A DNA stretch of 64,000 bases from Amphiscolops sp. MND2022 (lineage: Eukaryota), in NCBI GenBank assembly GCA_964187785.1, contig OZ076409.1:46998001-47062000 (forward strand), written 5' to 3'. The notes under the pieces were generated by a model, which worked only from the letters and a program-made list of their open reading frames with translations, had not been told where the DNA came from and made no database searches. Position 1 is the stretch's first letter; every line of letters starts with the position of its first letter. Shown in pieces: positions 44,318-63,300 of this stretch. The translations under genes were made by a program, and so were the position numbers.

Positions 44318-46703
44318 TGTCGCAGGCTGCCGCCTGCGACGCGAATTTTTCATCAAATTCCCCAAGAACAGGCTGAGACCAACCCTGCTCCTGAAGTTTT
44401 CCCTATTTAAACCGTAGAGATTGGTAGTGCATATAGCTACATATAATTTAGCTATTGATTGTTGCTTTTTTATATTTTAACCGTACGTACTTATAGTCCG
44501 TACGGCTACAATAAAATTACTGTTCTTACTCGTGAAACTATTTTTAATTGAATAATACTCAATTCTGTGCCTGATTTATTGTTGGAATGATGCTGGTAGA
44601 TTATGAATTGATTTATAACTAACGTAAACGTAAAAATTTGCCAAATTGATAACTTGCTGTGCAGGAGAAGAAACGCGTTCAAATGCTGTTTTGCTATAGC
44701 TCATTGTACGCACCGTCCTTAATAGAATTGACCAATCAGAGATCAGCGTTATATTACTTTCTCAGGCCGGTAGGACGTTACGTCCGTCGCGGTGGAATTG
44801 CAATACCTGTTGCTTGCCATTATATTCGCTACAAGAAGTGTTAGCACGATTACAAAGAACATGTAAATAGAACAATTAGAGATAGTTTAGAGCTTTCATA
44901 TAAAACCAATACCCTCAGTTCATGCAACTTGTTCACCCCCACCAACCCTATGATTCTATATATGGTAGTGACGTAATGTTGATGTCATTTACCCCAGTTA
45001 CTATTTTTTAGTAACATGAACACTACAATTTTGCCTGTCTTGCAAGGAAAAGTATAAATACTCGAGACACGTAGTTCAGGGGACCACAACTCTTGATGCT
45101 ACACCGATATCAAAATGCTGCGGTTAATTGAATATTTGCATTACGCCCTCATCAACAAATTTGTATTTGTAGGCTTGTTGTACAATAGCATTACCCATTC
45201 GATCAAGATATTTAGCCAATTCACTGTTGACACATTGATTCTTTTCAATGCCTTCCATTATTAAGCAGAAAGCAGACGAAAGGCGTTCTCGACAATTGAA
45301 CATCATGTCTGATGTCGAAAATGTAGTATACTGTTAGGAAGTTATTCAAGAGATGAAAACAGAAATGACAACAGTGAAGTTGAATTAAACATGGATTCAA
45401 GGTCTAGTAGACCACAACAGAATTCCAATTTGGCAGGAGAAAATTTCGGATCCCTTCTTAACACTAATAGTAGGGAAAATAATGAAATGACAATAGAAAC
45501 GACTCGAAAGACTAGTGATGAAATCTCTAATCAAATGTCCAAAAAGTTTAATGAGTTCAGATCTAGCTTAAATTCCCAAATTCAACATGCTCTTACTACA
45601 ACTATAACCGAAACGGTACTTCCTTCTATCCAAAAGACGACTATTTTCATCCCCTCATAGACGACAATAATCCCTATTATCCTGACCCTGACTATGGTTT
45701 TGACCCCTATGGGGACACTCATTCCTATAATCAACACCATCTATAATTCTACCTTAATTTTGATAAACAAACACAGGACATAGAGCCGGATTCTCCCGAA
45801 TCCAACCAAGCTCCCAATTAGACCCAATGAGACCCTTGCCAATGCATGTGTTGACCATTGGCAACACAAATGCCAATTCATTCACCAACCAACTTCTCTT
45901 GAGCCAGAGAACGAGATTCACCGTGGGGGACCACAGGTCTCTCTCGCTTCAGCAGTTGCTGCGCGCTTTGTGAACACCCTAGTAACAAGAACAGGGGAAC
46001 TAGACTATGTACCGCTGACAACCAATTTTGGCCTCAAATATAACCGGCGAATGCTATATTTTCCAATGGATTTCGGCGAACTAACTTTAGTCGGCTTTGA
46101 AGACACGGGAGCTCTCTAGCGCAATCCCAGAAGCTGATCTACGTAAAATCCGATTATTTGCCCACTCAATCTGTAATCAAAGAGAGCTCAGCACCCAACT
46201 TCCAAATAGTGGTTGCTAATGGACTGCTGGAAAATCCGAAGAGCACAGTCGAGCTGGAATTTGAAGTCGACGACATAGATTTCCACGAAAAACTTATAGT
46301 CATAAAAAAATTGTGCTAGTCCAATAATTGGCCTCTCATTCCTCCAACGGAATATTACCACTTTGACACGGGCAGAGTTTTTTGTACATGTGGAAACCCC
46401 TGTCTCTTCGTGATTTGAGGTTCAGAGTGTAACTGCTCGTTTCTAAAGAAACGGTAAGGAAAAGTGATGATCGGAATTAGCCGTTAAGTCATACAAACGC
46501 CGTTCACAATCGCGTACGAGCTGGTAGAACAACTCCAAACGACTGAGGAACAGATCGTCGTAAACAGTTGACCATTCTAACTTTTGTGGCTGAAATTCAC
46601 AACGATTAATACCGGTCTAGGATACATCAGGCTTCTTAGTAGGTATGAAGTTCGAATGGCCGGCAAGAAACAAGCCAAATGTACACCCCTGGTTCAAAAC
46701 GTT
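44318..46703 (+). mobile_element. Older, internally deleted Ty3/Gypsy remnant (putative LTR start, gag N-terminus, protease), interrupted by the young element
   Basis: Begins TGTCGCAGG (LTR-like TG start). Gag-like ORF pieces at 45248-45660. Protease remnant ELDYVPLTTNFGLKYNRRMLYFPMDFGELTLVGFEDTGAL (~45997-46116) aligns with young Pol EDDYIPLMSAIALKKKKRMLFLPIEFNTVKIEALVDSGAY. Left boundary uncertain. Confidence 0.72.
46443..46589 (-). pseudogene. Exon remnant of the older element's antisense accessory gene (homologue of exon 6/start of exon 7 of the 50456-54510 gene)
   Basis: TTTCAG|PQKLEWSTVYDDLFLSRLELFYQLV aligns without gaps to TTTTAG|LQGIDWLLTADNMITYRFSLLKVIL, with the same phase-0 acceptor position. 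Confidence 0.6.
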
Positions 46704-49052
46704 TGTTACGACTATTGTTCGGTGTTGTTTTAGAACTAGTCGCAGTTCGTGTCTTGACTGGGGTGGACGTTCTTGTTACGGAGATGTTTTCTTGGTCAGA
46801 ATCAGAATCTTGTATGTTCGAACTAACTGAGCATTTCTTGTTCGTAGGTGCTATTAATTTGAGCATTTCCTTTTGATTTTCGGCTAATATCTTTGTTAAA
46901 TCAGTCATTATTTCTTTTCTCAGAGTTGTTTTCATTTCCTCCAGGTTTTCAAGCTCAAGTCTAGGTTTTTTACTAGAACTAGGTATCAGGTTTTCAATAG
47001 AACCATTTTCATTCAGAGAAGCTTCGAAATCTCCTGACACTAACTCAGCTACAGCTTTCCTTTTCTGGCTTCTAGTTGTCATTTTGATCGAGAGAGAGAG
47101 AGAGAGAGAAAGTATCTTTGGAAAAGTTGAATTCTTCAAAGATCTAAGTTTTCTTTTGGATACGTTATAGTAACGGAACAAAACTGATTGTTACAAGGCA
47201 AGTCAAAATTGTAACTTTACAGGTATGTACTACATATTTATACTTTCCCAGCATCATTTGTTCCTCACCTAAAAATTCCTAGGTATCACAAAAATCGGGT
47301 TTGTTCAACAAAAAGCGCTAATGATTCATATCATTTCAGTCCCGCGTCGTAAAATCAGGCTTCAAAATTCCTAGTTGCGTCAGCGTCCCGTAAAATTTGT
47401 TGAAATCATTTTTGTTCAGGCAATCCCGTTTCCTGTTTAAGTCTCAAAATTGCGGTAAAATAAAAGTCTAGCTTGCATTTTCATCAGCGTAAGCACGCCG
47501 GCATGAACAATTAGTCAACTTTCAATTTGGGAAGCTGAGGTTTGAAGCAACATGATGACACTCAAAAATGGTGACGGAATGACGACGGAATGAATCAATT
47601 TGGAAGCGGAGGAAAAACATGGAAATTTGGTATAAAGGAACAAACGATGCTGAAATTATAATCTCAAATTCAAACATATGAATTACCTGCTAATGGTATG
47701 CTATATTGTTTACATTGAACACAAATTAAGTCCAAACGGGACTTTAACGAGATACAACAAAGATGAGCGCAACATATTCGTAATAATAAACGGAAAGCAA
47801 CTTCAACACTTTGCACAATAATCATGAAATTTATCAAAACATAATCGAAATCTGGTCATTAGCCCGATTGTTATTATCATAAAATACAACTGTCACTACT
47901 GACTTGAAGCCGATGAATTGACGTTGACCTTACGTCCTATGTTAGGATTATTGTTAAGATATTTTAAGTGCCGTAGTAAATCAAGTGGATTTGTTCCCTT
48001 AAGGAGGAACTAAGTAAGGCGTAATATCAACGTGTTTTAGTGATTTACCATGATGATACAAATCCAGAACATAAAATTACCATTGCAATTTTCTATCATT
48101 CTTCCTTACAGTACAGTTTTCCTTATGTAAAATCATAACTCTTAAATCTTTCAAATGCATCGATTTAAAGGGCTTCGTTTGGATTTCGTTTGAAGCAGTA
48201 TTTTTCATTTGCGATTTTACAATTCGCTCCGTAGGTGCTACGTATTAAGATTATCTATAGCAGAACAGCGGAATACAATTTTACAATCCGCTCCGTAAAT
48301 GTTCCGTACGTATTGAGATTGCTCATTGCTTAGCTGTCAGACCAAGCGGAGAGAAAGCGGAGTGCGTAGGTGAATTCATTCTCTTTCTCTTATTCCAATT
48401 GGTGTTGCTAGGGGCAACCGAAATTGATTCTATTTGACTTAGCTAAGAATAGTTCTATCAATAGAGTGACGTTATCGGTCCGTAGAAGCAAAATTCCTAA
48501 TATTAGCTCAGTAGATTGACGTTGCCATAGCGTTGTAAATATTTGCCTAAATCACTTGGCTGTGCTTTAAGTGAATATTGACAACCACTTCATCTCTGGA
48601 AAACAATTCCGCTCTATTATTTGTCTGTTCTTTTTCATTTTAGATTGTATGAATTCCGTTGGGATCTCGGAATTGAATTTTATTTTAATGTTTTCAATTT
48701 AGTGTGGACCAGTGGAAAGAATGATCCCAATTATAAATGTTCATTTTAGTGTTTAGATTAGTATGGCAGAAAATCAGATGATCATACCGGAAATGAAAAA
48801 TCTTATCACGCACGGAGAATATTTAACCGGAAGTTTTAGCTAAAAATCATTTCTGAAAAGTGTTCCGTAACGTTTACGTTAGGTTTTGTATTCGGAAAAT
48901 TATCTGCAATCGATTTAGCTGTACTGTAAGTAGAATTTAGATTAGTTTAAGATTAGTTTAATAGAGTTTACCTCGGCCTTGTCCTCGACCTCTTCCAAAG
49001 CCGGGTATGCCGCTACAGCAGTAGAAATTACGACCGGGAGCGGGTCGTGACA
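46704..49052 (-). repeat. 3' LTR (2349 bp)
   Basis: TGTTACGAC...GTCGTGACA. Near-identical to 60951-63295: about 15 substitutions counted by eye plus a 4-bp GA-repeat length difference. Confidence 0.97.
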
Positions 49053-49863
49053 GGGCCCCTCTTGAACCAAGAGATAAGGGTAGAGCGTTGCAGTGTGGGA
49101 TCTCTTTTCGGATAATGATTGGGGGGCGTCCGTTGTGTAGCCGCCTGCCGCGAGCAAGACCTCTGCCCTCCTTCATCTTGGCTATGAGCTTTTCTTCTTC
49201 TTCCATTTCGTGACTTTCCTTTTCTATTTGCGCCCACACAGTAGGACAAAATTCGGGTGGCCCACTTGGCTTGCTCGAGTTGCCCAATGTACAGTTGCAT
49301 TTTTCTTTTCCCTCCGTAGGGGGAACGTTTTCCTTTCTGCGGGGTAAGAATGGGGGTTGTCTGGGGCATTCCATTGCTTTCAGGCCACGGCCACGTCTGG
49401 CGGTTGCGGAGAACTGACGGTCTTCTAAATCTAAGTTGTATAGAGCGTCCAGATCTGCTAGCGGGGGTTCATTTAGGTCATTCAGCCTGACCGTATTCGG
49501 TACTCTCTCATTTCCCAGCAAGGGAATTTTACCTTTCGGAGTGGACGCGGTTTCTGCCCGAGAGGACTGCTCCTGCGGGGAGGGTGGCTCTTCGTAGTAG
49601 TCATCTGTGTCCGAATTGGCTGTTGACAGGTTGAACGTGACTCGCCCGAACTTCTTTTTCTTTTTGGGGGTGGGCCCAAATTTCCTCGGGGAGACATCGG
49701 AACCAAAAGAAGACTCTAAGTCTGCGTCGCTCCCGCGGTAAACTTCGACCGAGGAGTCACTTAGAGTTCCTACCGTATTCAGGGGCAGCGTTTTCAGCGG
49801 AGTGCTCGTGCGGTTATTTTCCTCATCAGAAGAGATGTCAATAACCAAGCTGTATCCGTTCAT
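48958..49863 (-). CDS. ORF3 of the retrotransposon, 301 aa, Ser/Pro/acidic low-complexity with basic NLS-like and RG-rich motifs; unknown function
   Basis: Intact ATG-started ORF in the env position with no evident signal peptide or TM segment. Contains PKKKKKFGR and ends GFGRGRGQGRGKLY inside the 3' LTR. Confidence 0.7.
   Translation of the reverse strand: MNGYSLVIDISSDEENNRTSTPLKTLPLNTVGTLSDSSVEVYRGSDADLESSFGSDVSPRKFGPTPKKKKKFGRVTFNLSTANSDTDDYYEEPPSPQEQSSRAETASTPKGKIPLLGNERVPNTVRLNDLNEPPLADLDALYNLDLEDRQFSATARRGRGLKAMECPRQPPFLPRRKENVPPTEGKEKCNCTLGNSSKPSGPPEFCPTVWAQIEKESHEMEEEEKLIAKMKEGRGLARGRRLHNGRPPIIIRKEIPHCNALPLSLGSRGALSRPAPGRNFYCCSGIPGFGRGRGQGRGKLY
49053..49063 (-). promoter_or_regulatory. 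Polypurine tract (short)
   Basis: AAGAGGGG-CCC immediately precedes the TGTCACG start of the 3' LTR on the minus strand. Confidence 0.6.
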
Positions 49864-50455
49864 CTTGTTGAGAATTTCAGGTTGTTTTATTTCAAGGATT
49901 TTCCTTGTTGGTGACGATTGTGCGTTAAGAAAATTGTGCTGGTCAAGCTTTATGAAGATTGGACGACAAATGACCGTTTCAAATTCTTTCTTACATAATT
50001 TTTATCGAAATTCTATTGGTCGGTTTTTCCGTTTTCGTTCCGGTGCGTCCCGAGTTAAGAAAAGAGATTTCTTTCATCTGCGCAGTGATTGGTTGAAACT
50101 CATAGAAAATCTTCTAATTTTATCTTCTTTCTTCTTTCTGTTTACTGGCGTAATGACGTCATTGATTTTTCTCGAATGTTCTACGTTCATATTCCGTAAT
50201 TTTCAAAATGCCATCTTTTCTTCAGAGCTTCTTGATGAATCTTTTATTCATCCGTATGCTTTTTGGAACGTTTTGTCCCGTCACTGCCGTAATAGGCTTT
50301 CACTGAAGTTGAACTTTAGATGATTTTTCAATTACGTAGGGATGACGTTGATGATTTCTTTTAGGGTGTCAACTTTTACTCGACGTGATTTCTATTTTGT
50401 TGATTTCTTTTTCCTTTTTAGATTTCGTTGGCAATCGCTATTGTCACTTTTGGTC

Positions 50456-53400
50456 ATGAGTGAAAACGCTGTTCCTCCTGATGTCTCTGGTTTTCTCAGT
50501 GGGCATGAGACTAACTTCTGCTTCACTGAAGACGACGCTTATCCCTCGGAAACGGAAGTTATAGTTACTTCTTCAGGTTGGTAAAAATTTTTCTGACTTC
50601 TTGGGTAGTAGGACTATTTTTGTTTTGGTGATCAGCCTTTTATAGTCTTACCCGTATCTCTGACGCGTCTGAACCAGATCTTGATTTTCAGTAACTCAAC
50701 CTGGAACTTCCTTGACTGTTGTTTCCGCTACTACTACGGGTGGGACATCTGCTACCCCCGTGGGGTTATCTTCGCTGAGTTCTTCTTTGAAGCTGCCTCC
50801 AGTGACTTCAGTGCTGGTTCCTGAGCAGTCCATCAATGATGTTTTGACAACATTGCTTCCTGCTAATCCTACTACTGGATCTTCAGTAGTTCCGGGTGTT
50901 GATGTTTCTTCTGCAGCTCCTCCTGGTTTGTCCGAAGTAGTTCCGGGCATTGATGTTTCCTCTGCAGTTCCCCCTGATTTGTCCGAAGTGGTTCCGGGCG
51001 ATTTTGATGTCAGTGTGGAGCCTCATGAAGGTGAGGCTGCTACCACCTCCACAGGAGAAGAAAGAACTGTAGAAGAGGAGGATACGCCAGTCTGTAAGTT
51101 GTGTGTTTGTGTGATTGGGTTCTTTTGTTGTTGTTGTTTTTTTTGTCAACTTGTTGGTTTCTGTTTTCCATTTCTTATCACTCTTGTGTTGTAGGTTCGA
51201 AAGTTTTTCCATTCCGGAAGACGAGCGTGAAGTTCATGGAATCGTCTCCGAAATTGAAAAGGACAACACGGGTCGCAGATGTTGATGCTACCTTGAGTGG
51301 TTGGAGTGGGGCAGAAGACGTATCATTCTCGGCAACTCCCGTGTCACCCGAAATGATGCAGCTGGGTCGTCAGTTGGCTTCGACGGTAGAGGAGCGTACT
51401 GCTCGGCAGATACAGACAGGTGAGTTGTTTATTTGTGATTGGCCTCTTGTTGGAATGGTGTGTGGTACGTTGCAGCGACGTTTGTTTTGGGTGTTACATT
51501 TGTTTGATTGGTTTTGTGCGTGTTATAGGCTTCAGCGAGCTTGTTGAGAAAGTGGAGAGTCACTTTGAGCGCCCGAAGGCGAAGAAGTATAGCAGTCGGA
51601 AGTTGTTGCATCGTCGGATGCTAGCGCTGAATCCATTGTTTGCTGACTTCGTGACGGGTTCGGAGTGTGGAAGTGCAAAGGTCTTCTATTGTCGCATTTG
51701 TAGAAGAGACGTAAAGATGGGCTCAAAAGGGGCAGCTGAGTTTGTTCGTCATTTTGAGTCGAAGAAACACTGGGAGCAGGACGTCACATATCGTGTGCAC
51801 ATGGGTCTCCCTGTGTACAACAAGCTAATGGAGCCCATGGAGCTGAGTGCCCGTCAGAGGGACGACTTCCTTTCACGGCCCTTCGTGGATTTGGGCGGGG
51901 AGTTTCCTTTCCCTGAGGACATGTTGCCCAAACATTCAAAGGCTTCTTCGAAGGTGCCCCTGATGACTCTCGTTTCAAGCTTGAGTGATGTGTTGCGCAG
52001 TGGCGGGGATTTCACGTTGGTTCGTCGTCTGTGGGGCTACTTCCTTGCGTCTCTGGGCGGTCGGGATCCGGAATTCTCTCTACAGTGGAGTCGCTCAGAG
52101 ACTGTGGTTAGTATTTTTGTGTGTTTGGTACATTTAGTGGGTGGTGTTCTGTTATGTGGTATTTGCTCCTTTTATTGTAAGCCGCTAGGTGACCGTAAAG
52201 ATGTACTGTTGTGTGATTTCGCTCTCTGTTGTTGTTTATTTCCTCTTCCTTCTTCTTTTCATTTGGGTGTTTGTTTCAGTCCGTGTTGTGTCAAGGCCTT
52301 GTTCCCCGAGTGCTGCGCGTGATGTTCAAGAACGTTGGGCAATTTCGGGAGTATTCTCTGCAGTATGAAAAGGATACGGAGGTAGAACGTTGTTTCGTTC
52401 TCTTCTGGGAAGACAACTATTTGAAGAAGGTATGTGTCGGTTGTGAGTCGCTGCTGCAGCGTGTGCCAAAACCAGAGTTGCTGCCCTTGGCACGAGTCGT
52501 CTGTAGTTTACCGTCTGGGAAGTTGCCTTTGGCTATAGTCGGCGGAAGTCCGTCCTTAGTCCGTGTCTTGAGTGACACTCGCGCTGACAGTCGTGTCTTT
52601 GTGTCTTACCAGCCCTTCACTAGTGAGATGTTGATTCGTTGTATTCGGCAAGCCTATCAGGACGTGTTCAGTATGATGGAGGTGACTTCCCTGGTGGATT
52701 ATACTGTGTTACGTTTGAAAACTGCCATTTACGAGGACTGGATGGAGGAGAGAGCCATACTGTGTAAAAGTGTTCGTCAGGGCCACGTGGAATTCGCTGA
52801 TTTGCGGGAAGTACTGTCAGATCTGATAGAGTTATGGCCTTCAATACGTCCATTTGTTCGATGTACTGGTAACCCTGAGGCTAAGGACAAGGCTGAACGG
52901 GTGAGTGAAAATTGTTCCTTCCGTCCGGTGTAGTTGCGGTGTTACTTTTTGTCATATCATGTTGTGTATTTTAGCTACAGGGGATTGATTGGTTACTAAC
53001 TGCCGATAATATGATAACGTATCGGTTCAGTCTGCTGAAAGTGATCCTCGATACTTGTGAGTGTTTTCTTTTGAGTTGATAGATTGTTCTTTGACTGTTG
53101 TTGACTGCGTATTTGTTCGTATTAGTGGCTGTTCTTTCCTGTCTTTCTCTTTTGTGTATTGGGGTAGGGTTGTTCTTCTGTTGTATACAAATCATGGTGT
53201 ATGTTTTAGTCTACAACAATTGCCCCAGATTTTGACAGGATCAGGCGGATTATGCTTTCCGCGCTTATGGCGAGTTTTGCAATTTTGTGTATCGCCTGCT
53301 CTTGAAAACTCGCAGCACCAGTGGTCTTCCTGAAATTCATGCTTGGGAGTGTTACATGGATGTCGTGAAGGTCCGGGATTTCGCTGTTGTTCCGTGTGAT

Positions 53401-54510
53401 TCTTTCCTCTCTAATCATGACTTGGGGCAACAGTTATCCGCAGGCAAGACGAAAGAGTATGTGGCTTTCCGACTTCATTGTCGTCAGTTCGTTGATCGTC
53501 TGATCATCATTTTACTGGAAAGCACATATGCACGTTCTGTTATTGCTAAGGGGATGTGTAGTTTCTGCCCCGAGTTGATGCTGGAAGGCGATGATGTGGC
53601 CGTTTTCAGTCTATTTGCGGATTTGTGCCGTATTCTTGTATCCTGTGGTTCGCTGAGTGTGGACGAAAGTAGTGCAGCTTTGGAGGAACATGCAAGTTTC
53701 ATTGTGGAAAAGCGTGGGTATCATTCTTCGTCAGGGCAGTCTGCTGGTGACATCGTGAATGTGGTGCCGTACCTGCTCCGTGATGTTGGGTTCTTGTCAC
53801 GACCACATTTGCTCCGGGTATTCAAGTTGTGTTGTCTTGTCGCGGGAGTGTCTGTCTCACGCTATCCTGCCGTGTCTCTGGATTTATCTGGGTTTGCGTT
53901 GAGTGTTGCAGACTTTCAGAGCTGTGTGCAACTGGTGCAGTCTTATATATTGAGCGAAGGGTATTCGCATCAATCCTTCTTCAGTGATCAGACTCTTATA
54001 GTTGTGAAGAAGGCCATCGCAGATGCTGGTAGATTCTTTGGAGCGTCTGACTTCAGTATGTGGACAGATTTTTGCAGGGAGGATGTAGATGCCTTTGTTG
54101 TGAAGTATAGTGCCTTATTTACTACTTTCCTCGCAGAGCGCCGGAAGAGCTTCGATGCGCGTTATGTGGAGTACAACAATGCAAATCGGATGTCCCGGCT
54201 ATCTGATAGTGGCGATACAGCTGGTTCGAGTGGTTCCTTGAGTTCTGTGATCCATCGGAAGAGGCAAGATACAGGTCCTCCAAGTGGTGTTTCTGTGAAA
54301 TCTGGTGGCAGTAAGTCAAGTAATGGCGGAACGAAGTCGGAGTCTAAGTCTGCTACTATTTCGTTTAAAAGGAAGCAGCAGAAAAATGTCGGTGGTGATT
54401 CGGGTGGTGGAGCTGGTTCATCTAAAGGAAGGAAGAAAGCTGTGCGAGATGCTGATGATGATGGTTCTGGTAGTCAGCCGAAGTCTAAAAAAGTGTCCAA
54501 AAACTGTTGA
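50456..54510 (+). CDS. Seven-exon antisense accessory gene within the LTR element (exons 50456-50576, 50692-51093, 51195-51419, 51529-52106, 52280-52900, 52975-53056, 53210-54510; 1109 codons with one in-frame TGA at 53233-53235); C2H2/BED-like zinc finger plus hAT-transposase-like segments
   Basis: Six GT-AG introns join consecutive ORFs with compatible phases (1,1,1,0,0,1). Total 3330 nt, divisible by 3. Zinc finger FYCRICRRDVKMGSKGAAEFVRHFESKKHW. Confidence 0.82.
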
Positions 54511-54664
54511 TGATTTAGTTTCATTTAGGTTTTGATGTAGTTATATTTTCCTTTTATTGTCTGCTGATCTGTGTTGTATTAGTTTTTGGGTATGTAGTTT
54601 TAGAGAATCTTGAGAGAAATTGACGTAGCCATTCCGGTTCGGTTTGGTTTGTTGAGTTTTTTAG

Positions 54665-57600
54665 CTAGTCTTGAGTTGGACGTGAGTCCTCCGTAGTAAC
54701 TGAGTCAAGCATTCGAAAATCAGGATTGACATTGGGTTTCGGATTAGGTCGTAAGTTGTATCTTCCCACTTTTCTAGGGTTATATCCAACGACGATAGGC
54801 GGCAATTCGGGTGTTTTGGGAGGGCTGTGTATCGGTGGTGGGGTCAAAATATATGGGTTATCGCTGACATCTAGGTCAAATGACGTTATATTGTCGGAAG
54901 GTGTTTTATCTTCTGCAGTTTTTTCATTTGTGGCTGTTTGAGCCACGTCGTTTTCCGTTGTAGGTGCGTCTGTGGTTATTTTAACCACGTCATTTTCCAC
55001 TATACTTTCTTTGGTGGTTGTTTTAACCACATCATTTTCCGTTGTAATTTCGTCGTTTCCTGTTATGTCTTCGATTTCTGTAAGTGTAGCTTCTTTGGCG
55101 GCGTTTTCCGTATTGTTTCCGAACAGAACTTCTCCGAATTCGGTTTCCCAAGCTTGCGCGTACCAATCATTGTGGGTTGTTTTAACCTCTGGGTCTGGAA
55201 GGTAATCTTCCCTTCTGACTGTTACGTCAGGTACTCGCTGATTGGGCGCATATAGCCTTAGGCGAATTCTGTGGAGGGTTTGAGTATACCTAGTTCCCGT
55301 GCGGCGTACGACGTAGTTGTTGTTCGAGAGTACTTTGACTACTATGTAGGGTCCAGTCCAAATGCAATCTTTAAAGGCGAATTTCATCGACTGGTTGTCT
55401 GCCCTCGGATTAAGGACGTAGCAGTAGTCGTTGACTTTGAGTGGCGTTGCTGTCGCTTTCTTGTCATAGTACTGTTTGTACTTTAAGTAGGACTGCATTA
55501 GATTTTCTTCGGCGGCTTGGTGTATTTCGGATATTTGCTTCTGTAGTTGATCCGTCAGTTCTTCGTTGTTATCTTTTTTCCATTCAGGTTTCAATCCGAG
55601 TTTTTTGTCTAGGATGTTGTACGGAATGCGTCCGTGAAATACTGTTGTAGGTTCACAACCTAGGCTTTCATGATAGCTCGTATTGTAGTTCATGACCGCG
55701 ATCTGGACATATTTATGCCACACAGAGCGTCGTTCTCCCGTTGATATCTTTAGGGAGGTTTTCAAAGAGGCATGAGTCCTTTCTAGGATGCCAATTGTTT
55801 GAGCGTGTTTCGTCGATGCGTGGCTTATCCGTATATCCAGTGTTTGTGTTATTTGATTGACTACTTCTGACCTGAATTGTGATCCTTTATCCGTTAGAAT
55901 GACGGTCGGCAGGTAGCAGTGTCGTGTCATGACGTCTATTATGCATCGTGCGACTGTTTTGGCTGTCATGTCCTGTGTCGGGTAAGCGAAAAGGTAACGC
56001 GAAAAAACATCCATCATCGTTATGATGTGTTGGTATCCATTTGAGGAAGGTAGATTTGGTAGAATGTCTACTTCTAGGCAGTCTTCTGGTCCCATTGTGA
56101 ATTCAGTGTTGCTTAGCATTTTGGGACGTATTTGTCTTGTGTCAATTCTTTTATTGGCAATGCAGTCTTGACAGCTGGTTACCCAAGCTCTGATTTTACG
56201 TGCAAGACCCGGGAAGTAGTATTTCGCTCTGCATTCTTGTATCATTTTTGTGATTCCTGGGTGTTTATTTGTTTTCCCATGTAGAGTGGCCAAGAGTTCT
56301 GGGACTAGGTGTTTCGGAATTATAATTTGATTATGGGTGACTGATCCGTCTTCTCCGTAGTATTCATCTTCATGGCGTAATAGGTTTCGTCCTCGTGGTT
56401 CAGTTTTGAGAAGGTGTTTGTCATATTCTTCGTGTGAGATCCGTTGTTTCAGTGCTTTGAGGAGAGGGTCTGCATCTTGCTCGTTTCTGATCCGTGCATT
56501 TTCTTTGATTGCACCGAAGGAGTAGACTGCGGAGTTGAGTGGTATCTTGATGACTTCGGTTACTTTTGTTGATAGTTCTCTCTCATGTTCGTCTAGGGCG
56601 CGTCGTTTGCTGAGTGCTTTTCGGGCAAAGATTTCTTGTTCAGATTCATCTTCTTCATCAGGTAGGAAGAAAAGTTGTTCTTCGTCAGCTACATCTGATG
56701 ATTGTAAATTGACCTCAATTGGGGACGTTAGGATGTCGTCTCGTAGTTTAAGTTGTACCTTTTCTTTCGGTGTAAGTTCGAGTCTTGAGAGAAAATCTGC
56801 TGCTGTGTTTTGGGAGCCTGCTACGTGCATAATTCGAAACTTGAACTGTAATACATAGTCGCAGGCATTCCAGAGTGCAGGGGGTGTCGTTTTGGTCTGG
56901 AAGAATCTCGTTACTGAGCGGTTGTCTGTTAAGACCAGGGTTGGAATTGTTGCTTCCCATAGTATGTGACTGTATTCGAGGAATGCATGATAGATTGCTA
57001 AGAATTCCTTGCAGTAGATAGACATTTTCAGTTGTGCAGGTGAAAAAACTCGTGATCCGAACGCTACTGGTGCGAAGGTTTTTCGTTTGGAGAGTATTTT
57101 GCGTTCATCGTTCTCCTCAATCATGAGGGCGTAGCCTGACGCACGAAAGCTTGCATCCGTCATTAGGACGTATTGTTTTCCTGCTATGGGCTGTCGGAGC
57201 GCAAGTCCACAAGCTTCCGCTAAACTGGCGTTAATTTCCTTAAAGTTATCGACAAGTTCTTCTGATATTCTGATCTTGGAGTCTGCTTTAAGAAGTTCGT
57301 ACATGCCGATGAGCTTTTCTGACAAGCGCGGTATGTAGTTGCGGTAATAGTTAACAAAGCCAATGTATTTTTGAACCTGTTTTTTGGATTTGGGGAAGCG
57401 GACTTTGGGGAGGAAATTTTTGACTTTTTGATCTTGCGGGGCTACTCCGTCGGGGGTGATGGTTCGGCCAAGGAATTCGATTTGGGTTACTCCGAAATGA
57501 CATTTTTCGATAGTTAGTTTTAGTCCTGCTTTTCTAATACATTTGAAGACTGCTCTGATGTTTTTTATGAGCTGTTCCGTTGTGTTTGCGGCAATGCCAA

Positions 57601-59959
57601 TGTCATCTACGTATTGTGCACATTGATCGGCTTTGATGACTGAGTCCAGATACTCACGCATGAAGCTCGAAAAGGCTGATAGGGCTCTGCTTAGTCCTTG
57701 TGCCAGGCGACGATAGGCGATTGTCCTACTAGCAAAATTAAAAGCAAGTAACTCTACTGACCTTTGGTCTGCCATTTGAAGGCAGTGATACGCCTGGGAG
57801 CAGTCAAGTTTGCAGAGTAGTTTTTTCCCTGCTAGGTGTTGTGCCGCATCTGAGAGGGTGCTGACAGGGTGGTTATTGTTGATGTAGTCATCTGCTATGA
57901 GTGCATTGATTTTGCGCAGATCCACCAGTAGTCTCAGTTTGCCGTTGGGTTTCCGTTGTGCAAATATAGGACTGGCGTACTTGGAGAAGGGGAGTGTCGT
58001 GATGATGCCGTATTTGTGCATCAGTGCCAGTTCCACTGTTAGGTCTTCTTTGAGGTTGATCGGGACAGGTAAGCTCTGTGTGTAGACTGGTTTGTCGTCT
58101 TGTGGTGTTAGGCTGACTTTGAACTGTGTATTCATCTCGATATCTAGTCGGTGTCGAGCAAAGATGTCATTGAATTCAACAATGGTGTCCTCAAGGTTTT
58201 CACGGTCTTTGCCCGTAATTAGTGAGTCTGTCCATTTGAAAATTGATAGAAATTTGTTGCGAGAGTCTTCGTTTTCGGTTGGGTCAAGTTTTTCTAGTTC
58301 GGCAAGGTCCCGCAGTTCTTTCAGGATTCGCTTTTGTATGGGCGAATGTTCTTGTTCGTTGCCTGGGTGTTCTGGGGTCGGGAACCAGAATTTTTCTTCA
58401 TTGTCTTCTGGCCGTTCTACTTGCATTAGTGCGTTGATGTACGTGACCACATCGTCATGGTCATTGAGGAGATTCAGGGCGGCAATGTCAACTGGACGGA
58501 TCATCTTCGTTTCTTCGGGTTTCAGGATTTGCAGTTCGGCCATTTTGGTGTCGTTGGCTATTGTGTATGGAAAATCCGTGGTGTTGGCGATTTTAATTGG
58601 GAGCTTTTTATCTCTAGCTGTTGTAATCGCTGGGGCTACTATTACTTTCGCGCATTCATCGAATTGTGGTAGGGGTTGTATTGTGCCCGTTATTGGGTGC
58701 TCAATACTCACAGGGATTGTTGCGTAGATGACTCGGGTAGAGTGCGCTGGGATTGTATGCTTGGCTTCGGTCTTTATCGTGATGGGTTTGGGATTGCACT
58801 TTTGTCTTTCGTCTGTGAGCGCCATCGTGATTTGGATCTTGGGAAAGTTGATGGTTCCCTGTGCCGTGTCAAGGATTGCGGCATGCTTACGTAGAAACGC
58901 TAATCCAATTATGGGGAATGACGTTTGATTCATGATGATGAATGTTTCTTCAAAAGTGTAATCCCCTATTTTGAAGCGCAGAGTGTAGGTGGCAAGTGGT
59001 TGTTCTAGTTCGGCATTGGCGTATTGCACTTTGAAAGGGGGTGGAGGTGCTTTGTTAACAATGCATTGACTCGCATTTTGGTGGAGTTTTTCAGCATCCC
59101 TTTCGCTAATAGCATTAATGTACGCACCTGAGTCGACTAAGGCTTCGATTTTGACAGTGTTGAATTCGATTGGTAAGAAGAGCATTCTCTTTTTCTTCTT
59201 GAGGGCAATTGCAGACATTAACGGGATGTAGTCGTCTTCCTTGTCGTGCTGGATGAATTCTTTGATGACATCTAGATCTTCTGGCAGTGTTGGGTGACAT
59301 TCCGTTATTTCTTCGTCTTCAGCGGCTATTGCTGTGGCTGGCGCGGTTTGTGGTGGTGACGAGAGCGAAGCGGTGTTTTCTCGCTGTTCTCTTGCTTGTC
59401 GTGACCATATTGTTTTGTCTTCAATGCATATGATGTTTTCGGCATCGATCGGTGTGGACGTGATGGTGACGGGTGCTGTTGGGGACGGTGTTGTTCTTTT
59501 CAGGATCGGTGACGGCGGTGACGGTAGGTTTGTGATCTTCGTAGCTTGAGCTTGAGGGTTTGAGACTTGGATTTTGAAGGATAGTTTATTTGTATCATAG
59601 ATGGTTGGTTCATCCCAAGGGTCACATCTGTAGTCTCTGTCATATATATAAATTCGGTCTGTTTTTGATTCCGGCAACGGTCTTTTGAGTGTCGCATAGT
59701 TATCGGGCGATTCTGTTATCCACTGGGGTAGTGGCGTTGGATCTTCTGGGTGTCTGGCATTATGCCTGAGTATCATGCCTACGTTCCAACGGCGTTGCCA
59801 GTCTTGAGTTGGTTCTTCATTACATTCGGTTAAAAAATCTTCTTCATACCTGTTTGGGGGGTCCTCTATCGTGTACGCCCTCGCGTCTACTTTTTCCCCA
59901 AATCGTAGGCGCGGCGACTTTAGTTTTTTGGCTGAGAGGACGTGGTAGGTACAGGTTGT
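54665..59959 (-). CDS. pol: Pol polyprotein (protease, RT, RNase H, integrase with GPY/F), probably made as Gag-Pol by -1 frameshift
   Basis: LVDSGA; LDCSQAY, AQGL, QYVDD; TDAS, KEFLA, TDN, ADFLSR; H-X4-H...CQDC, EVD, TDKGSQF, LER; WTGPYIV. The frame is open from 59959, upstream of the annotated ATG at 59776. Confidence 0.97.
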   Translation of the reverse strand, partial: TTCTYHVLSAKKLKSPRLRFGEKVDARAYTIEDPPNRYEEDFLTECNEEPTQDWQRRWNVGMILRHNARHPEDPTPLPQWITESPDNYATLKRPLPESKTDRIYIYDRDYRCDPWDEPTIYDTNKLSFKIQVSNPQAQATKITNLPSPPSPILKRTTPSPTAPVTITSTPIDAENIICIEDKTIWSRQAREQRENTASLSSPPQTAPATAIAAEDEEITECHPTLPEDLDVIKEFIQHDKEDDYIPLMSAIALKKKKRMLFLPIEFNTVKIEALVDSGAYINAISERDAEKLHQNASQCIVNKAPPPPFKVQYANAELEQPLATYTLRFKIGDYTFEETFIIMNQTSFPIIGLAFLRKHAAILDTAQGTINFPKIQITMALTDERQKCNPKPITIKTEAKHTIPAHSTRVIYATIPVSIEHPITGTIQPLPQFDECAKVIVAPAITTARDKKLPIKIANTTDFPYTIANDTKMAELQILKPEETKMIRPVDIAALNLLNDHDDVVTYINALMQVERPEDNEEKFWFPTPEHPGNEQEHSPIQKRILKELRDLAELEKLDPTENEDSRNKFLSIFKWTDSLITGKDRENLEDTIVEFNDIFARHRLDIEMNTQFKVSLTPQDDKPVYTQSLPVPINLKEDLTVELALMHKYGIITTLPFSKYASPIFAQRKPNGKLRLLVDLRKINALIADDYINNNHPVSTLSDAAQHLAGKKLLCKLDCSQAYHCLQMADQRSVELLAFNFASRTIAYRRLAQGLSRALSAFSSFMREYLDSVIKADQCAQYVDDIGIAANTTEQLIKNIRAVFKCIRKAGLKLTIEKCHFGVTQIEFLGRTITPDGVAPQDQKVKNFLPKVRFPKSKKQVQKYIGFVNYYRNYIPRLSEKLIGMYELLKADSKIRISEELVDNFKEINASLAEACGLALRQPIAGKQYVLMTDASFRASGYALMIEENDERKILSKRKTFAPVAFGSRVFSPAQLKMSIYCKEFLAIYHAFLEYSHILWEATIPTLVLTDNRSVTRFFQTKTTPPALWNACDYVLQFKFRIMHVAGSQNTAADFLSRLELTPKEKVQLKLRDDILTSPIEVNLQSSDVADEEQLFFLPDEEDESEQEIFARKALSKRRALDEHERELSTKVTEVIKIPLNSAVYSFGAIKENARIRNEQDADPLLKALKQRISHEEYDKHLLKTEPRGRNLLRHEDEYYGEDGSVTHNQIIIPKHLVPELLATLHGKTNKHPGITKMIQECRAKYYFPGLARKIRAWVTSCQDCIANKRIDTRQIRPKMLSNTEFTMGPEDCLEVDILPNLPSSNGYQHIITMMDVFSRYLFAYPTQDMTAKTVARCIIDVMTRHCYLPTVILTDKGSQFRSEVVNQITQTLDIRISHASTKHAQTIGILERTHASLKTSLKISTGERRSVWHKYVQIAVMNYNTSYHESLGCEPTTVFHGRIPYNILDKKLGLKPEWKKDNNEELTDQLQKQISEIHQAAEENLMQSYLKYKQYYDKKATATPLKVNDYCYVLNPRADNQSMKFAFKDCIWTGPYIVVKVLSNNNYVVRRTGTRYTQTLHRIRLRLYAPNQRVPDVTVRREDYLPDPEVKTTHNDWYAQAWETEFGEVLFGNNTENAAKEATLTEIEDITGNDEITTENDVVKTTTKESIVENDVVKITTDAPTTENDVAQTATNEKTAEDKTPSDNITSFDLDVSDNPYILTPPPIHSPPKTPELPPIVVGYNPRKVGRYNLRPNPKPNVNPDFRMLDSVTTEDSRPTQD
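59853..59929 (-). promoter_or_regulatory. -1 ribosomal frameshift signal: A AAA AAC slippery site plus predicted H-type pseudoknot
   Basis: Heptamer 59929-59923 lies directly before the gag TAA, and pol is in the -1 frame. Stem CGCGCCTAC/GTAGACGCG; loop TTTGGGG is complementary to downstream CCCCAAA. Confidence 0.8.
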
Positions 59960-61329
59960 TCACTGATTTGGTTGGTTGGGATGGTGAATTCTCGTTTCTT
60001 CTTTCTGGGGTCATTTGCTGCGTTGGCTCCGTTCCAACAATTCTCAGTTTTGTGCATCTTGCCACATGTATCACACTTGGGTTTGGGTACTTCATTTTGG
60101 GCTGGGTCTTTTGTGTTTGTTTTGGCTGTATTATAACGTTCTCGTTGAAGTTTGCGACACTGTGCTTTGTAGTGGCCATATTTGCCACAGTGAAAACAAT
60201 GGCCTCGTTGTTGTTGGTCTTTTTTATGGTCCGTCACTACAGCGTCCACTGTGTTGAGTGGGACTAGGATTGTTTCATCGGGCGCACCTAGTCCGTTTAA
60301 TCTCATCTCCCTCTCAAGATGTAAAACTATATCATTGTAGGGTTTATCTTCCAAATATGCTCTGTTGAGGATCTTTTTGACGTGATCCGGCATTTTGGCG
60401 TAGATTGCTTTATCAATGAATTTTTGTGCTTCTGAGCCGAATGCTTCTTTTGCAGTTTTTTGCAGGGTGTCAAGGAACTCATGGAGATTCTGTTTAGTGG
60501 GGTCAAAATGCAGGGCGTCCCACTCACATCTCGCTTTAGCGGATGATTGGAAATCACCAAAGCGGCGTTTAAATGCCGTTATGACTTCTTCTAGGTTGTC
60601 TTTTTTGGTGTCATCTAGATTACAATACGCTTGTAGTGCGTTTCCTCGTAGGAGTGAATGGAAGTAGTTGATCTTTTGTATCTCAGTTAGGTGAGGATAC
60701 ATTTTGATATTGTTTCGGAATAGGTCCTCAAAAAGTTCAAACTTTTCGGACTTACCATCGAAAACTGGGAGCGAAGCAGTGAGTGCTTTCGGCATTGGAA
60801 GTAGATTGGTTGATGGGAATGTCTGTGGTTGTGGTGCGAACAGTATCTTTGACGTGGATGGTCGGTCTTTCGGTTGTTCGCTGAGTATACGTTGTGCTTT
60901 TGGTCTTTTGGTGGGTTGGTTAGTGGAATCATTGAGGACTCCTGTCACCATGTTACGACTATTGTTCGGTGTTGTTTTAGAACTAGTCGCAGTTCGTGTC
61001 TTGACTGGGGTGGACGTTCTTGTTACGGAGATGTTTTCTTGGTCAGAATCAGAATCTTGTATGTTCGAACTAACTGAGCATTTCTTGTTCGTAGGTGCTA
61101 TTAATTTGAGCATTTCCTTTTGATTTTCGGCTAATATCTTTGTTAAATCAGTCATTATTTCTTTTCTCAGAGTTGTTTTCATTTCCTCCAGGTTTTCAAG
61201 CTCAAGTCTAGGATTTTTACTAGAACTAGGTATCAGGTTTTCAATAGAGCCATTTTCATTCAGAGAAGCTTCGAAATCTCCTGACACTAACTCAGCTACA
61301 GCTTTCCTTTTCTGGCTTCTAGTTGTCAT
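59920..61329 (-). CDS. gag: Gag polyprotein (469 aa) with two zinc knuckles
   Basis: LPVFDGKSEKFELFEDLF capsid-like region; CFHCGKYGHYKAQC and CDTCGKMHKTENC knuckles. Confidence 0.95.
   Translation of the reverse strand: MTTRSQKRKAVAELVSGDFEASLNENGSIENLIPSSSKNPRLELENLEEMKTTLRKEIMTDLTKILAENQKEMLKLIAPTNKKCSVSSNIQDSDSDQENISVTRTSTPVKTRTATSSKTTPNNSRNMVTGVLNDSTNQPTKRPKAQRILSEQPKDRPSTSKILFAPQPQTFPSTNLLPMPKALTASLPVFDGKSEKFELFEDLFRNNIKMYPHLTEIQKINYFHSLLRGNALQAYCNLDDTKKDNLEEVITAFKRRFGDFQSSAKARCEWDALHFDPTKQNLHEFLDTLQKTAKEAFGSEAQKFIDKAIYAKMPDHVKKILNRAYLEDKPYNDIVLHLEREMRLNGLGAPDETILVPLNTVDAVVTDHKKDQQQRGHCFHCGKYGHYKAQCRKLQRERYNTAKTNTKDPAQNEVPKPKCDTCGKMHKTENCWNGANAANDPRKKKREFTIPTNQISEQPVPTTSSQPKN
60938..60950 (-). 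promoter_or_regulatory. Primer-binding site, probably tRNA-Leu type
   Basis: TGGTGACAGGAGT directly follows the 5' LTR end (...CGTAACA). It resembles the complement of tRNA-Leu 3' ends; tRNA identity is inferred. Confidence 0.8.
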
Positions 61330-63295
61330 TTTGATCGAGAGAGAGAGAGAGAAAGTATCTTTGGAAAAGTTGAATTCTTCAAAGATCTAAGTTTTCTTTT
61401 GGATACGTTATAGTAACGGAACAAAACTGATTGTTACAAGGCAAGTCAAAATTGTAACTTTACATGTATGTACTACATATTTATACTTTCCCAGCATCAT
61501 TTGTTCCTCACCTAAAAATTCCTAGGTATCACAAAAATCGGGTTTGTTCAACAAAAAGCGCTAATGATTCATATCATTTCAGTCCCGCGTCGTAAAATCA
61601 GGCTTCAAAATTCCTAGTTGCGTCAGCGTCCCGTAAAATTTGTTGAAATCATTTTTGTTCAGGCAATCCCATTTCCTGTTTAAGTCTCAAAATTGCGGTA
61701 AAATAAAAGTCTAGCTTGCATTTTCATCAGCGTAAGCACGCCGGCATGAACAATTAGTCAACTTTCAATTTGGGAAGCTGAGGTTTGAAGCAACAGGATG
61801 ACACTCAAAAATGGTGACGGAATGACGACGGAATGAATCAATTTGGAAGCGGAGGAAAAACATGGAAATTTGGTATAAAGGAACAAACGATGCTGAAATT
61901 ATAATCTCAAATTCAAACATATGAATTACCTGCTAATGGTATGCTATATTGTTTACATTGAACACAAATTAAGTCCAAACGGGACTTTAACGAGATACAA
62001 CAAAGATGAGCGCAACATATTCGTAATAATAAACGGAAAGCAACTTCAACTCTTTGCACAATAATCATGAAATTTATCAAAACATAATCGAAATCTGGTC
62101 ATTAGCCCGATTGTTATTATCATAAAATACAACTGTCACTACTGACTTGAAGCCGATGAATTGACGTTGACCTTACGTCCTATGTTAGGATTATTGTTAA
62201 GATATTTTAAGTGCCGTAGTAAATCAAGTGGATTTGTTCCCTTAAGGAGGAACTAAGTAAGGCGTAATATCAACGTGTTTTAGTGATTTACCATGATGAT
62301 ACAAATCCAGAACATAAAATTACCATTGCAATTTTCTATCATTCTTCCTTACAGTACAGTTTTCCTTATGTAAAATCATAACTCTTAAATCTTTCAAATG
62401 CATCGATTTAAAGGGCTTCGTTTGGATTTCGTTTGAAGCAGTATTTTTCATTTGCGATTTTACAATTCGCTCCGTAGGTGCTACGTATTAAGATTATCTA
62501 TAGCAGAACAGCGGAATACAATTTTACAATCCGCTCCGTAAATGTTCCGTACGTATTGAGATTGCTCATTGCTTAGCTGTCAGACCAAGCGGAGAGAAAG
62601 CGGAGTGCGTAGGTGAATTCATTCTCTTTCTCTTATTCCAATTGGTGTTGCTAGGGGCAACCGAAATTGATTCTATTTGACTTAGCTAAGAATAGTTCTA
62701 TCAATAGAGTGACGTTATCGGTCCGTAGAAGCAAAATTCCTAATATTAGCTCAGTAGATTGACGTTGCCATAGCGTTTTAAATATTTGCTTAAATCACTT
62801 GGCTGTGCTTTAAGTGAATATTGACAACCACTTCATCCCTGGAAAACAATTCCGCTCTATTATTTGTCTGTTCTTTTTCATTTTAGATTGTATGAATTCC
62901 GTTGGGATCTCGGGATTGAATTTTATTTTAATGTTTTCATTTTAGTGTGGACCAGTGGAAAGAATGATCCCAATTATAGATGTTCATTTTAGTGTTTAGA
63001 TTAGTATGGCAGAAAATCAGAAGATCATACCGGAAATGAAAAATCTTATCACGCACGGAGAATATTTACCCGGAAGTTTTAGCTAAAAATCATTTCTGAA
63101 AAGTGTTCCGTAACGTTTACGTTAGGTTTTGTATTCGGAAAATTATCTGCAATCGATTTAGCTGTACTGTAAGTAGAATTTAGATTAGTTTAAGATTAGT
63201 TTAATAGAGTTTACCTCGGCCTTGTCCTCGACCTCTTCCAAAGCCGGGTATGCCGCTATAGCAGTAGAAATTACGACCGGGAGCGGGTCGTGACA
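60951..63295 (-). repeat. 5' LTR (2345 bp)
   Basis: Direct repeat of 46704-49052, adjacent to the PBS and flanked by TSD ACGTT. Confidence 0.97.
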
Positions 63296-63300
63296 ACGTT

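Follow-up and report, generated by a model that had tools for sequence, protein, structure and literature searches.

The window studied here is a 64,000-nucleotide (nt) stretch of DNA from Amphiscolops sp. MND2022 (assembly GCA_964187785.1, contig OZ076409.1:46,998,001-47,062,000, forward strand), and window coordinates are used throughout. It holds a long terminal repeat (LTR) retrotransposon whose gag and pol genes lie on the minus strand. A chain of exons runs between pol and the 3' LTR on the plus strand, antisense to the element, where an earlier reading of this DNA made without database searches (the sequence-only reading) had placed it. We think it probable that this chain is an accessory gene of the retrotransposon, spliced, maintained by selection and of probable hAT transposon origin. 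Its parts are:

48926..50421, plus strand: predicted untranslated-region intron, with its donor in the 3' LTR and its presumed partner acceptor ending at 50421
50456..50576, plus strand: coding exon 1, with the ATG at 50456; acidic, with 8 D/E and 0 K/R in 40 amino acids (aa)
50577..50691, plus strand: intron 1, GT-AG, within a predicted stem-loop at 50574-50703
50692..51093, plus strand: exon 2, S/T/P/G-rich, with a 51-nt (17-codon) repeat
51094..51194, plus strand: intron 2, GT-AG
51195..51419, plus strand: exon 3
51420..51528, plus strand: intron 3, GT-AG
51529..52106, plus strand: exon 4, a C-x2-C...H-x5-H zinc finger followed by a helical region
52107..52279, plus strand: intron 4, GT-AG
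52280..52900, plus strand: exon 5, an RNase H-like core and the start of a helical insertion in the structural model
52901..52974, plus strand: intron 5, GT-AG
52975..53056, plus strand: exon 6, 82 nt
53057..53209, plus strand: intron 6, GT-AG
53210..54510, plus strand: exon 7, an all-helical region of ~315 aa and a basic low-complexity tail, with the terminal stop at 54508-54510
53233..53235, plus strand: premature stop in frame, in this copy only; it takes up codon 685, eighth of the full codons in exon 7

The six introns proposed by the sequence-only reading (74-173 nt) all begin with GT and end with AG at the boundaries listed, with lengths of 115, 101, 109, 173, 74 and 153 nt. The single 1109-codon frame into which that reading had joined the exons stood up only in part. 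Its ATG, introns and terminal stop are as described, but the frame is not open, as the stop at codon 685 had been overlooked; the spliced exons comprise 1110 codons counting the terminal stop and are interrupted there. This copy is thus broken, and its antisense gene is a pseudogene. An alternative acceptor just 3' of the in-frame stop was considered and rejected, since it has the wrong phase and diverged families read through the stretch.

The genome assembly measures 1.07 Gb, and Wnt matches above the cut-off mark its owner as an animal. When it was searched with the DNA of the gene segment, 36 matches were scored out of 1447 candidates, and 35 of these spanned the full length, at 94-100% identity. 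The near loci compared below number 30 (29 sisters and this copy), the sisters having been found with the gene segment itself. Codon 685 is open in 29/29 sisters. The spliced frame runs uninterrupted to the homologous stop in 19/30 near loci and is open without that stop in one more, while 10 are broken, this copy included. All twelve splice dinucleotides are intact in 29/30. Length changes in exons common to more than two copies are in-frame gains or losses of 51 nt, whereas shared changes in introns are often not multiples of three. The 51-nt unit is that of the exon 2 repeat (50885-51003), whose copy number varies in frame, with one unit fewer in 5/29 near loci and one more in 5/29.

We estimated the ratio of nonsynonymous to synonymous change (dN/dS) from variants common to at least two near copies, counting variants among related copies rather than independent events. 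Along the spliced frame, 46 nonsynonymous and 80 synonymous shared variants over 2544 and 783 sites give a dN/dS of 0.18; for singleton variants it is 0.39. The sequence-only reading had proposed values below 1 in the exons as a check, and the contrast with the control frames is clear in four of five cases: the other plus frames give 1.14 and 1.50 and two minus frames 1.02 and 1.23, while the minus frame with the same third positions gives 0.26. All seven exons lie below 0.4 and exons 4-6 at 0.00-0.08 (the integrase core of pol gives 0.02). Diversity at codon positions 1, 2 and 3 is 0.015, 0.011 and 0.033, compared with 0.022 inside the introns and 0.003 at the splice dinucleotides. Introns had been expected to diverge faster than exons, which holds against codon positions 1 and 2 but not against third positions (0.022 vs 0.033). 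These patterns indicate that the protein encoded by the antisense gene is under purifying selection.

Protein searches of the genome revealed further families, at 51-55% identity over exon 7 and 65-75% over exon 4, and one locus from each of four diverged groups was examined. All four have the same order: ORF3 (a third element-sense open reading frame, ORF) on the minus strand, the gene on the plus strand and pol on the minus strand. At every boundary scored (both ends of introns 4-6, the donor of intron 1 and the acceptor of intron 3 in all four, and intron 2 where exons 2-3 could be aligned), GT-AG occurs at the homologous position and in the same phase. From exon 4 to the stop, the spliced frame is open in 4/4 despite differing intron lengths. 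Synonymous sites are saturated between these families (proportion of synonymous differences, pS, 0.65-0.88; of nonsynonymous differences, pN, 0.16-0.37). The preservation of splice sites over such distances, as in 29/30 near loci, is beyond what chance would give. Public collections hold many more relatives, 421 for exon 7 at 50% clustering and 169 for exon 5. All 10 clusters that were looked up, like the 120 relatives listed, are ENA records, and 70 of these 120 are less than 70% identical to any of the six families compared here. No relatives of the gene occurred in JGI metagenome or IMG/VR contigs.

An 18-nt motif of intron 1 has 673 exact matches in the genome (its reversed control has none). 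It lies 4.4-6.6 kb from an integrase match, antisense to it, in 20/21 cases checked, and in the twenty-first a 96% intron-1 match lies at that distance. Loci chosen by integrase alone, outside the gene's top lists, carry the gene in 3/3 cases, two of them complete. Together with its presence in 29/29 near sisters, this bears out the claim that the gene is retained across element copies, and, with purifying selection, the claim that it is a dedicated accessory gene and no chance passenger. The distribution indicates that it belongs to the element family, not to a single copy.

Retention is not perfect, however. The third pol-chosen locus, L046, has no matches to exons 4-5. Among the 40 LTR matches listed, 14 gene-bearing loci have two LTR matches 14.0-14.3 kb apart, but one pair is just 9.4 kb apart, and elsewhere (C6, 57.00 Mb) an LTR match lies ~0.7 kb from an integrase match, so that the gene must be missing from that copy. 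These last two cases look like deletions. The derivative at L046:2879-3764 consists of exon 1, intron 1, exon 2-like sequence and exons 6-7, and another copy of the same pol group (C1, 18.32 Mb) has the full integrase-motif spacing. Integrase matches ~14 kb apart in genome G000 (C13:16513399-16552238, C1:94134543-94156514 and C9:27444495-27459239) suggest tandem elements sharing LTRs.

The sequence-only reading had named its own alternative, an independent DNA transposon that jumped into this copy, and it did not survive: sister copies carry the segment, and no terminal inverted repeats (TIRs) or target-site duplication (TSD) were found around ~49900-54650. Active hAT transposons have TIRs of 8 bp or more with a flanking TSD, and a comparison of 49850-50460 with 54480-54720 yielded no such pair; the best inverted pair there is 13 nt with one mismatch, falls on a splice acceptor and coding sequence, and has unlike flanks. 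The wider form of this idea, a recent DNA transposon insertion, in this copy or in the family's founder, that has since been carried as a neutral passenger, is barely conceivable. It could draw on the protein's resemblance to a transposase and on the 10/30 broken near loci, although broken copies are expected after insertion. Purifying selection in shared variants, the same location in families with saturated synonymous sites, and the missing TIRs, TSD and catalytic motifs all tell against it.

What the gene encodes is best approached exon by exon. Exons 1-2 are acidic and S/T/P/G-rich and the tail of the protein is basic. All four ligands of the exon 4 zinc finger are invariant in 5/5 families. 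In the Atlas, its named look-alikes belong to the zf-C2H2_12, zf-BED and FAM200-ZBED5 clusters (0.88-0.91); they are no more than leads and include hAT N-termini. Its Pfam matches are to C2H2 fingers, all sub-threshold. A structural model of exon 5 built on 111 sequences (confidence score pLDDT 80.6) has the order strand-strand-strand-helix-strand-helix, followed by long helices. In a Foldseek search with this model, ranks 1-7 are chains of the Hermes hAT transposase (best E 1.4e-3, probability 0.99). A second look with VIA-align also put Hermes at rank 1 (Z 6.5, 170 residues aligned, root-mean-square deviation (rmsd) 16.3), matching model residues 1-207 to Hermes 148-354. The exon 7 model is all-helical (pLDDT 83), and its Atlas look-alikes are only helical-repeat proteins scoring below 0.9.

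Several results weigh against a hAT origin. The top three Atlas matches of exon 4 are unnamed and its recognition score is under the tool's threshold. For the exon 5 model, no Foldseek row reached E 0.001 or better, and the wide VIA-align search placed Hermes only at rank 4 (Z 5.3), tied with glucokinase and Hsp70 folds; Z scores of 5.3-6.5 lie in the range that VIA-align calls common, with an rmsd of 16 Å. The exon 7 model found no counterpart in fold searches, not even Hermes. Pfam scans of exons 2-5 and 7 found no hAT family, the hAT sequences of the same genome went undetected by profiles of exons 4, 5 and 7, and all that emerged from profile-profile comparison was a zinc-finger register, and that weakly (E 0.046, probability 1.2%). 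Further searches were likewise negative: PDB sequence searches with the exon 5 and exon 7 profiles found no match, PF05699 (the C-terminal dimerisation domain) was found in 0/53 exon-7 relatives at E 0.1, and 15 stretches around PF05699 matches in the same genome, taken as candidate donors, were not matched by profile. No relative of full length came out of a search for longer proteins, which gave nothing for exon 7 and only three intron read-through ORFs for exon 4. PF14291 matched nowhere, controls included. Several hAT families do occur in the genome (loci L035-L043, L047 and L052), their frames long and open and their catalytic motifs intact; they show no detectable sequence kinship to the gene. 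One profile row at E 0.002 among the hAT stretches comes from a short frame that is not part of the transposase ORF.

These results leave room for a selected antisense accessory gene taken from a host gene or some other source, its likeness to hATs going no further than a zinc finger and the widespread RNase H-like fold. The lack of a sequence-level hAT match, the modest fold scores shared with kinases and Hsp70, and the unmatched exon 7 fit such an origin, and we also set the introns on this side, as six or seven exceed the number known for most hAT transposases. Yet two independent tools applied to two exons point to hATs in the right order, and Hermes alone aligned with the exon 5 model over its whole length, helical insertion included. 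On balance we find a host or other source unlikely and a hAT origin likely, the latter as a moderate, structural link that is not proven. A DNA transposon, captured long ago, appears to be the gene's ancestor, and the alternative that the sequence-only reading offered against itself appears partly right on origin.

The catalytic residues of hATs are a different matter. In Hermes, D180, D248, R318, W319 and E572 are essential according to PMC6027215. Where the two Asp registers fall, the end of strand 1 is E in 74/79 rows and the end of strand 4 is G in 101/110 rows, with the caveat that the register was placed by secondary structure and not by structural alignment. RW and C/DxxH are each found in 0/111 rows in the stretches where they would be expected, and no conserved Glu occurs in the C-terminal stretch (columns 186-221). 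True hATs of the same genome have RW in 8/9 cases and the second-Asp motif in 6/9. With the key residues absent in register, we do not file the protein as a hAT transposase, though it is built like one; in the models it looks like a catalytically dead hAT-like transposase. That it has instead kept nuclease or recombinase activity through a rebuilt active site, aiding integration or recombination, strikes us as improbable. The near-invariant acidic residue at the end of strand 1 and the strong constraint on exons 4-6 could be read in its favour, but the glycine at the second Asp position, the missing motifs and Glu, and one derivative locus without this part of the protein argue otherwise.

Intron 1 stands apart from the other introns. 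It is 81-92% identical in six diverged loci, compared with 29-55% for the other introns and 40-64% for the neighbouring exons. In the predicted structure, an outer stem joins the two exon ends and encloses an inner hairpin. Three pairs show two-sided changes among seven distinct sequences (1/500 shuffles; 0 in slid controls), with the structure drawn from the same, related sequences as those scored. Single-sequence folding gave z-scores of -0.55 to -2.46 over eight strands, this window's copy being no better than shuffles; the calculations favour neither strand. The unpaired parts of the structure hold two palindromes, of 6 and 8 nt, which are the same in 8/8 sequences and may resemble kissing-loop dimer signals. 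Rfam gave no match over the element, and for intron 1 only chance-level rows (best E 2). The intron also contains a donor-like site (50651) and a TATA-like hexamer (50644) on the minus strand.

Such conservation invites the view that selection acts mainly on the RNA, be it the antisense transcript or the intron-1 structure, and that the coding signal is a leftover. The excess identity of intron 1 over its adjoining exons is its chief support. It would, however, have to accommodate the codon-position pattern and frame-specific dN/dS described above, as well as the open frames in 4/4 diverged loci, and we judge it highly improbable.

From the conserved splice signals we infer that the gene is transcribed separately. 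An acceptor just before the ATG is present in 30/30 near loci and 4/4 families. The donor at 48926 is the sole strong plus-strand donor in the 1.5 kb upstream, and is kept in 30/30 near loci and 3/5 diverged stretches; the other two have a different donor-like site at about that distance. The absence of AATAAA or ATTAAA within 1.5 kb 3' of the stop counts against this. We do not claim the plus-strand TATA-like hexamer at 48732 as a promoter, as it is not kept in a diverged LTR.

The gene also moves between elements. Locus L044 matches this element at 98% in integrase and at 95-97% over ORF3 and the stretch upstream of it, yet the exons of the gene are only 38-64% identical. This pattern indicates a swap with ends near 50200-50420 and 54600, and thus that the gene is exchanged between elements as a module.

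Returning to the selected accessory gene of probable hAT origin, its history and working could be as follows. A captured hAT gene would have lost its TIRs and catalytic residues and been kept under selection as an accessory gene. By established logic, antisense introns face the opposite way, so that the genomic RNA keeps them and every transposition copies them. The antisense transcript would start in U3 of the 3' LTR, splice over ORF3 and then remove six more introns. Its product of ~1,100 aa would begin with an acidic, disordered N-terminus and end in a basic tail, with a zinc finger, a dead RNase H-like scaffold and a helical region, in that order, between them. Among possible functions, that of a nuclear DNA-binding protein acting on the element's own DNA, keeping the element transcribed or unsilenced, takes the largest share of our remaining credence, though somewhat under half of it. 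A cofactor of integration or of complementary DNA (cDNA) ends would be rather unlikely, and an RNA-binding regulator of intron-1 structure distinctly unlikely. More broadly, the lineage may have domesticated a DNA-transposon gene with its introns and swapped it as a module, with intron 1 serving both as an antisense splice switch and as a signal for dimerisation, packaging or export of the genomic RNA, possibly read by the dead transposase; we offer this as a doubtful, though not far-fetched, extension.

The retrotransposon itself consists of the following parts:

46699..46703 (left) and 63296..63300 (right), no strand: target-site duplication of 5 bp, flanks identical
46704..49052, minus strand: 3' LTR, 99.2% identical to the 5' LTR
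48958..49863, minus strand (element sense): ORF3, ~300 aa, low complexity, with a basic stretch and then an RVxF-like motif; its end lies inside the 3' LTR
49053..49070, minus strand: purine-rich tract adjoining the 3' LTR, a candidate polypurine tract judged by its sequence
54665..59959, minus strand: pol frame, 1764 codons, in the order protease-reverse transcriptase-RNase H-integrase
59920..61386, minus strand: gag frame, with DUF1759 (E 1.4e-9), Retrotrans_gag (E 0.002) and a zinc knuckle; first Met at ~61329
60933..60950, minus strand: candidate primer-binding site, likewise judged by its sequence, adjoining the 5' LTR and beginning with TGG
60951..63295, minus strand: 5' LTR, 2345 nt, TG...CA ends; the gag frame opens within it

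The LTR pair differs by 15 substitutions and 4 gap columns over 2349, so the sequence-only reading was right to call the LTRs ~99% identical and bounded by a TSD. The pol frame matches RVT_1, RT_RNaseH, Integrase_H2C2, rve and Integrase_p58_C in Pfam, and the closest solved sequences to its reverse transcriptase and RNase H are foamy-type Pol and Ty3. The tail of pol appears disrupted in 17 of 30 loci, a count that we set aside, as a shared alternative stop probably accounts for it. The presence of gag and of pol in this order identifies the element as a Ty3/Gypsy-type LTR retrotransposon. DUF1759, present here in gag, is known mainly from BEL/Pao elements. The gag frame starts inside the 5' LTR (60951-61386, minus strand), which places the primer-binding site within gag and means that ~125 gag codons are repeated by the 3' LTR (ORF 46636-47190).

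ORF3, which the sequence-only reading did not mention, lies between the antisense gene and the 3' LTR. It is also under purifying selection (ratio 0.14), its frame is open in 24/30 near loci, and it has no Pfam match. A lysine run followed by the RVxF-like motif, of a type linked to protein phosphatase 1 docking, occurs in 5/8 loci scanned; the other three end short there. In the region homologous to 49400-49870, compared at L031-L034 and L046, ORF3 weakly matches the C-terminal tail of pol in two families (E 0.004-0.008), which may reflect low complexity or an old duplication.

Elsewhere in the window, 4300-37500 has many short dispersed direct and inverted repeats (e.g. 17112-17295/17546-17729 at 90%, and 5127-5457/16015-16340), which look like remnants of non-autonomous DNA transposons. 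A cluster of repeats on a 180-nt scale occupies 26486-28125.

If our interpretation is right, it offers a probable origin for antisense extra ORFs, in which a class I element captured the transposase gene of a class II element. It also means that a large gene, with its six or seven introns, can travel in an LTR element over many retrotransposition cycles. As there are hundreds of copies in many diverged families, direct measurement of selection, module exchange and the loss of parts becomes possible. Annotation of LTR elements by their ORFs does not see such genes, and more may be hidden in other animals. A puzzle is that the product of a separate antisense mRNA should serve all copies, yet selection persists in each lineage.

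How does this gene compare with known systems? A search of the literature by titles and abstract openings, with subscription journals largely outside it, found no animal LTR element with an antisense, intron-bearing or transposase-derived cargo of this kind, and an earlier description is possible. The hAT transposases such as Hermes, and domesticated proteins of the ZBED/FAM200 type, share the order modelled for its protein, with a zinc finger, then an RNase H-like core with helical insertion and then a helical C-terminus. Unlike hATs, the gene has no TIRs or TSD, lacks the catalytic motifs, has long acidic N-terminal and basic C-terminal extensions, and is borne by a retrotransposon. The extra ORF3s of LTR elements in bdelloid rotifers (a DEDDy nuclease and a GDSL lipase; PMC5408684) are likewise captured non-env genes of recognisable origin in animal elements. 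They differ in that PMC5408684, in its passages on these ORFs, mentions neither introns nor an antisense position for them and finds no clear deviation from neutral evolution.

Among retroviruses, HBZ of human T-cell leukaemia virus 1 (HTLV-1), as described in PMC1459196, is antisense and spliced, starts in the 3' LTR and encodes a nuclear regulator. Our gene resembles it in that a donor within the 3' LTR and an acceptor shortly before the ATG are both conserved, with a predicted first exon. HBZ, however, is a short bZIP protein to which the protein here is unrelated (Pfam scans of exons 2-5 and 7 found no bZIP family), and the gene here has six further introns.

The closest parallels are the antisense ORFs of Gypsy elements. 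Those of plants (the aORF-3R kind) share its position, orientation, presence in most copies and conservation, and when tested as one of them the gene showed these properties in the near loci, in its selection, in the diverged families and in the pol-chosen loci. A nuclear, DNA-binding regulatory role has been suggested for the plant ORFs, as we propose here. The gene differs in its animal host, its length of ~1,100 aa, its six coding introns conserved across families and its lack of PF04195, the domain of Retand TRP28 proteins, which was not found in the same Pfam scans; the word "intron" does not occur in the main text of PMC11963269. It also differs in having a recognisable probable origin: PMC7264820, which calls the origin of the plant ORFs unknown, reports that they show no similarity to other transposable elements and that a nested-insertion origin has no support, and called for spliced antisense transcripts to be looked for. 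Outside plants, the brtn gene of Boty, in Gypsy elements of Botrytis and Sclerotinia, also lies antisense between pol and the 3' LTR; it is fungal and of unknown function, and is likened here by the description in the papers that cite it (PMC7264820, PMC8365987). The Amphiscolops gene is a variant of these antisense accessory ORFs already known from plant and fungal Gypsy elements.

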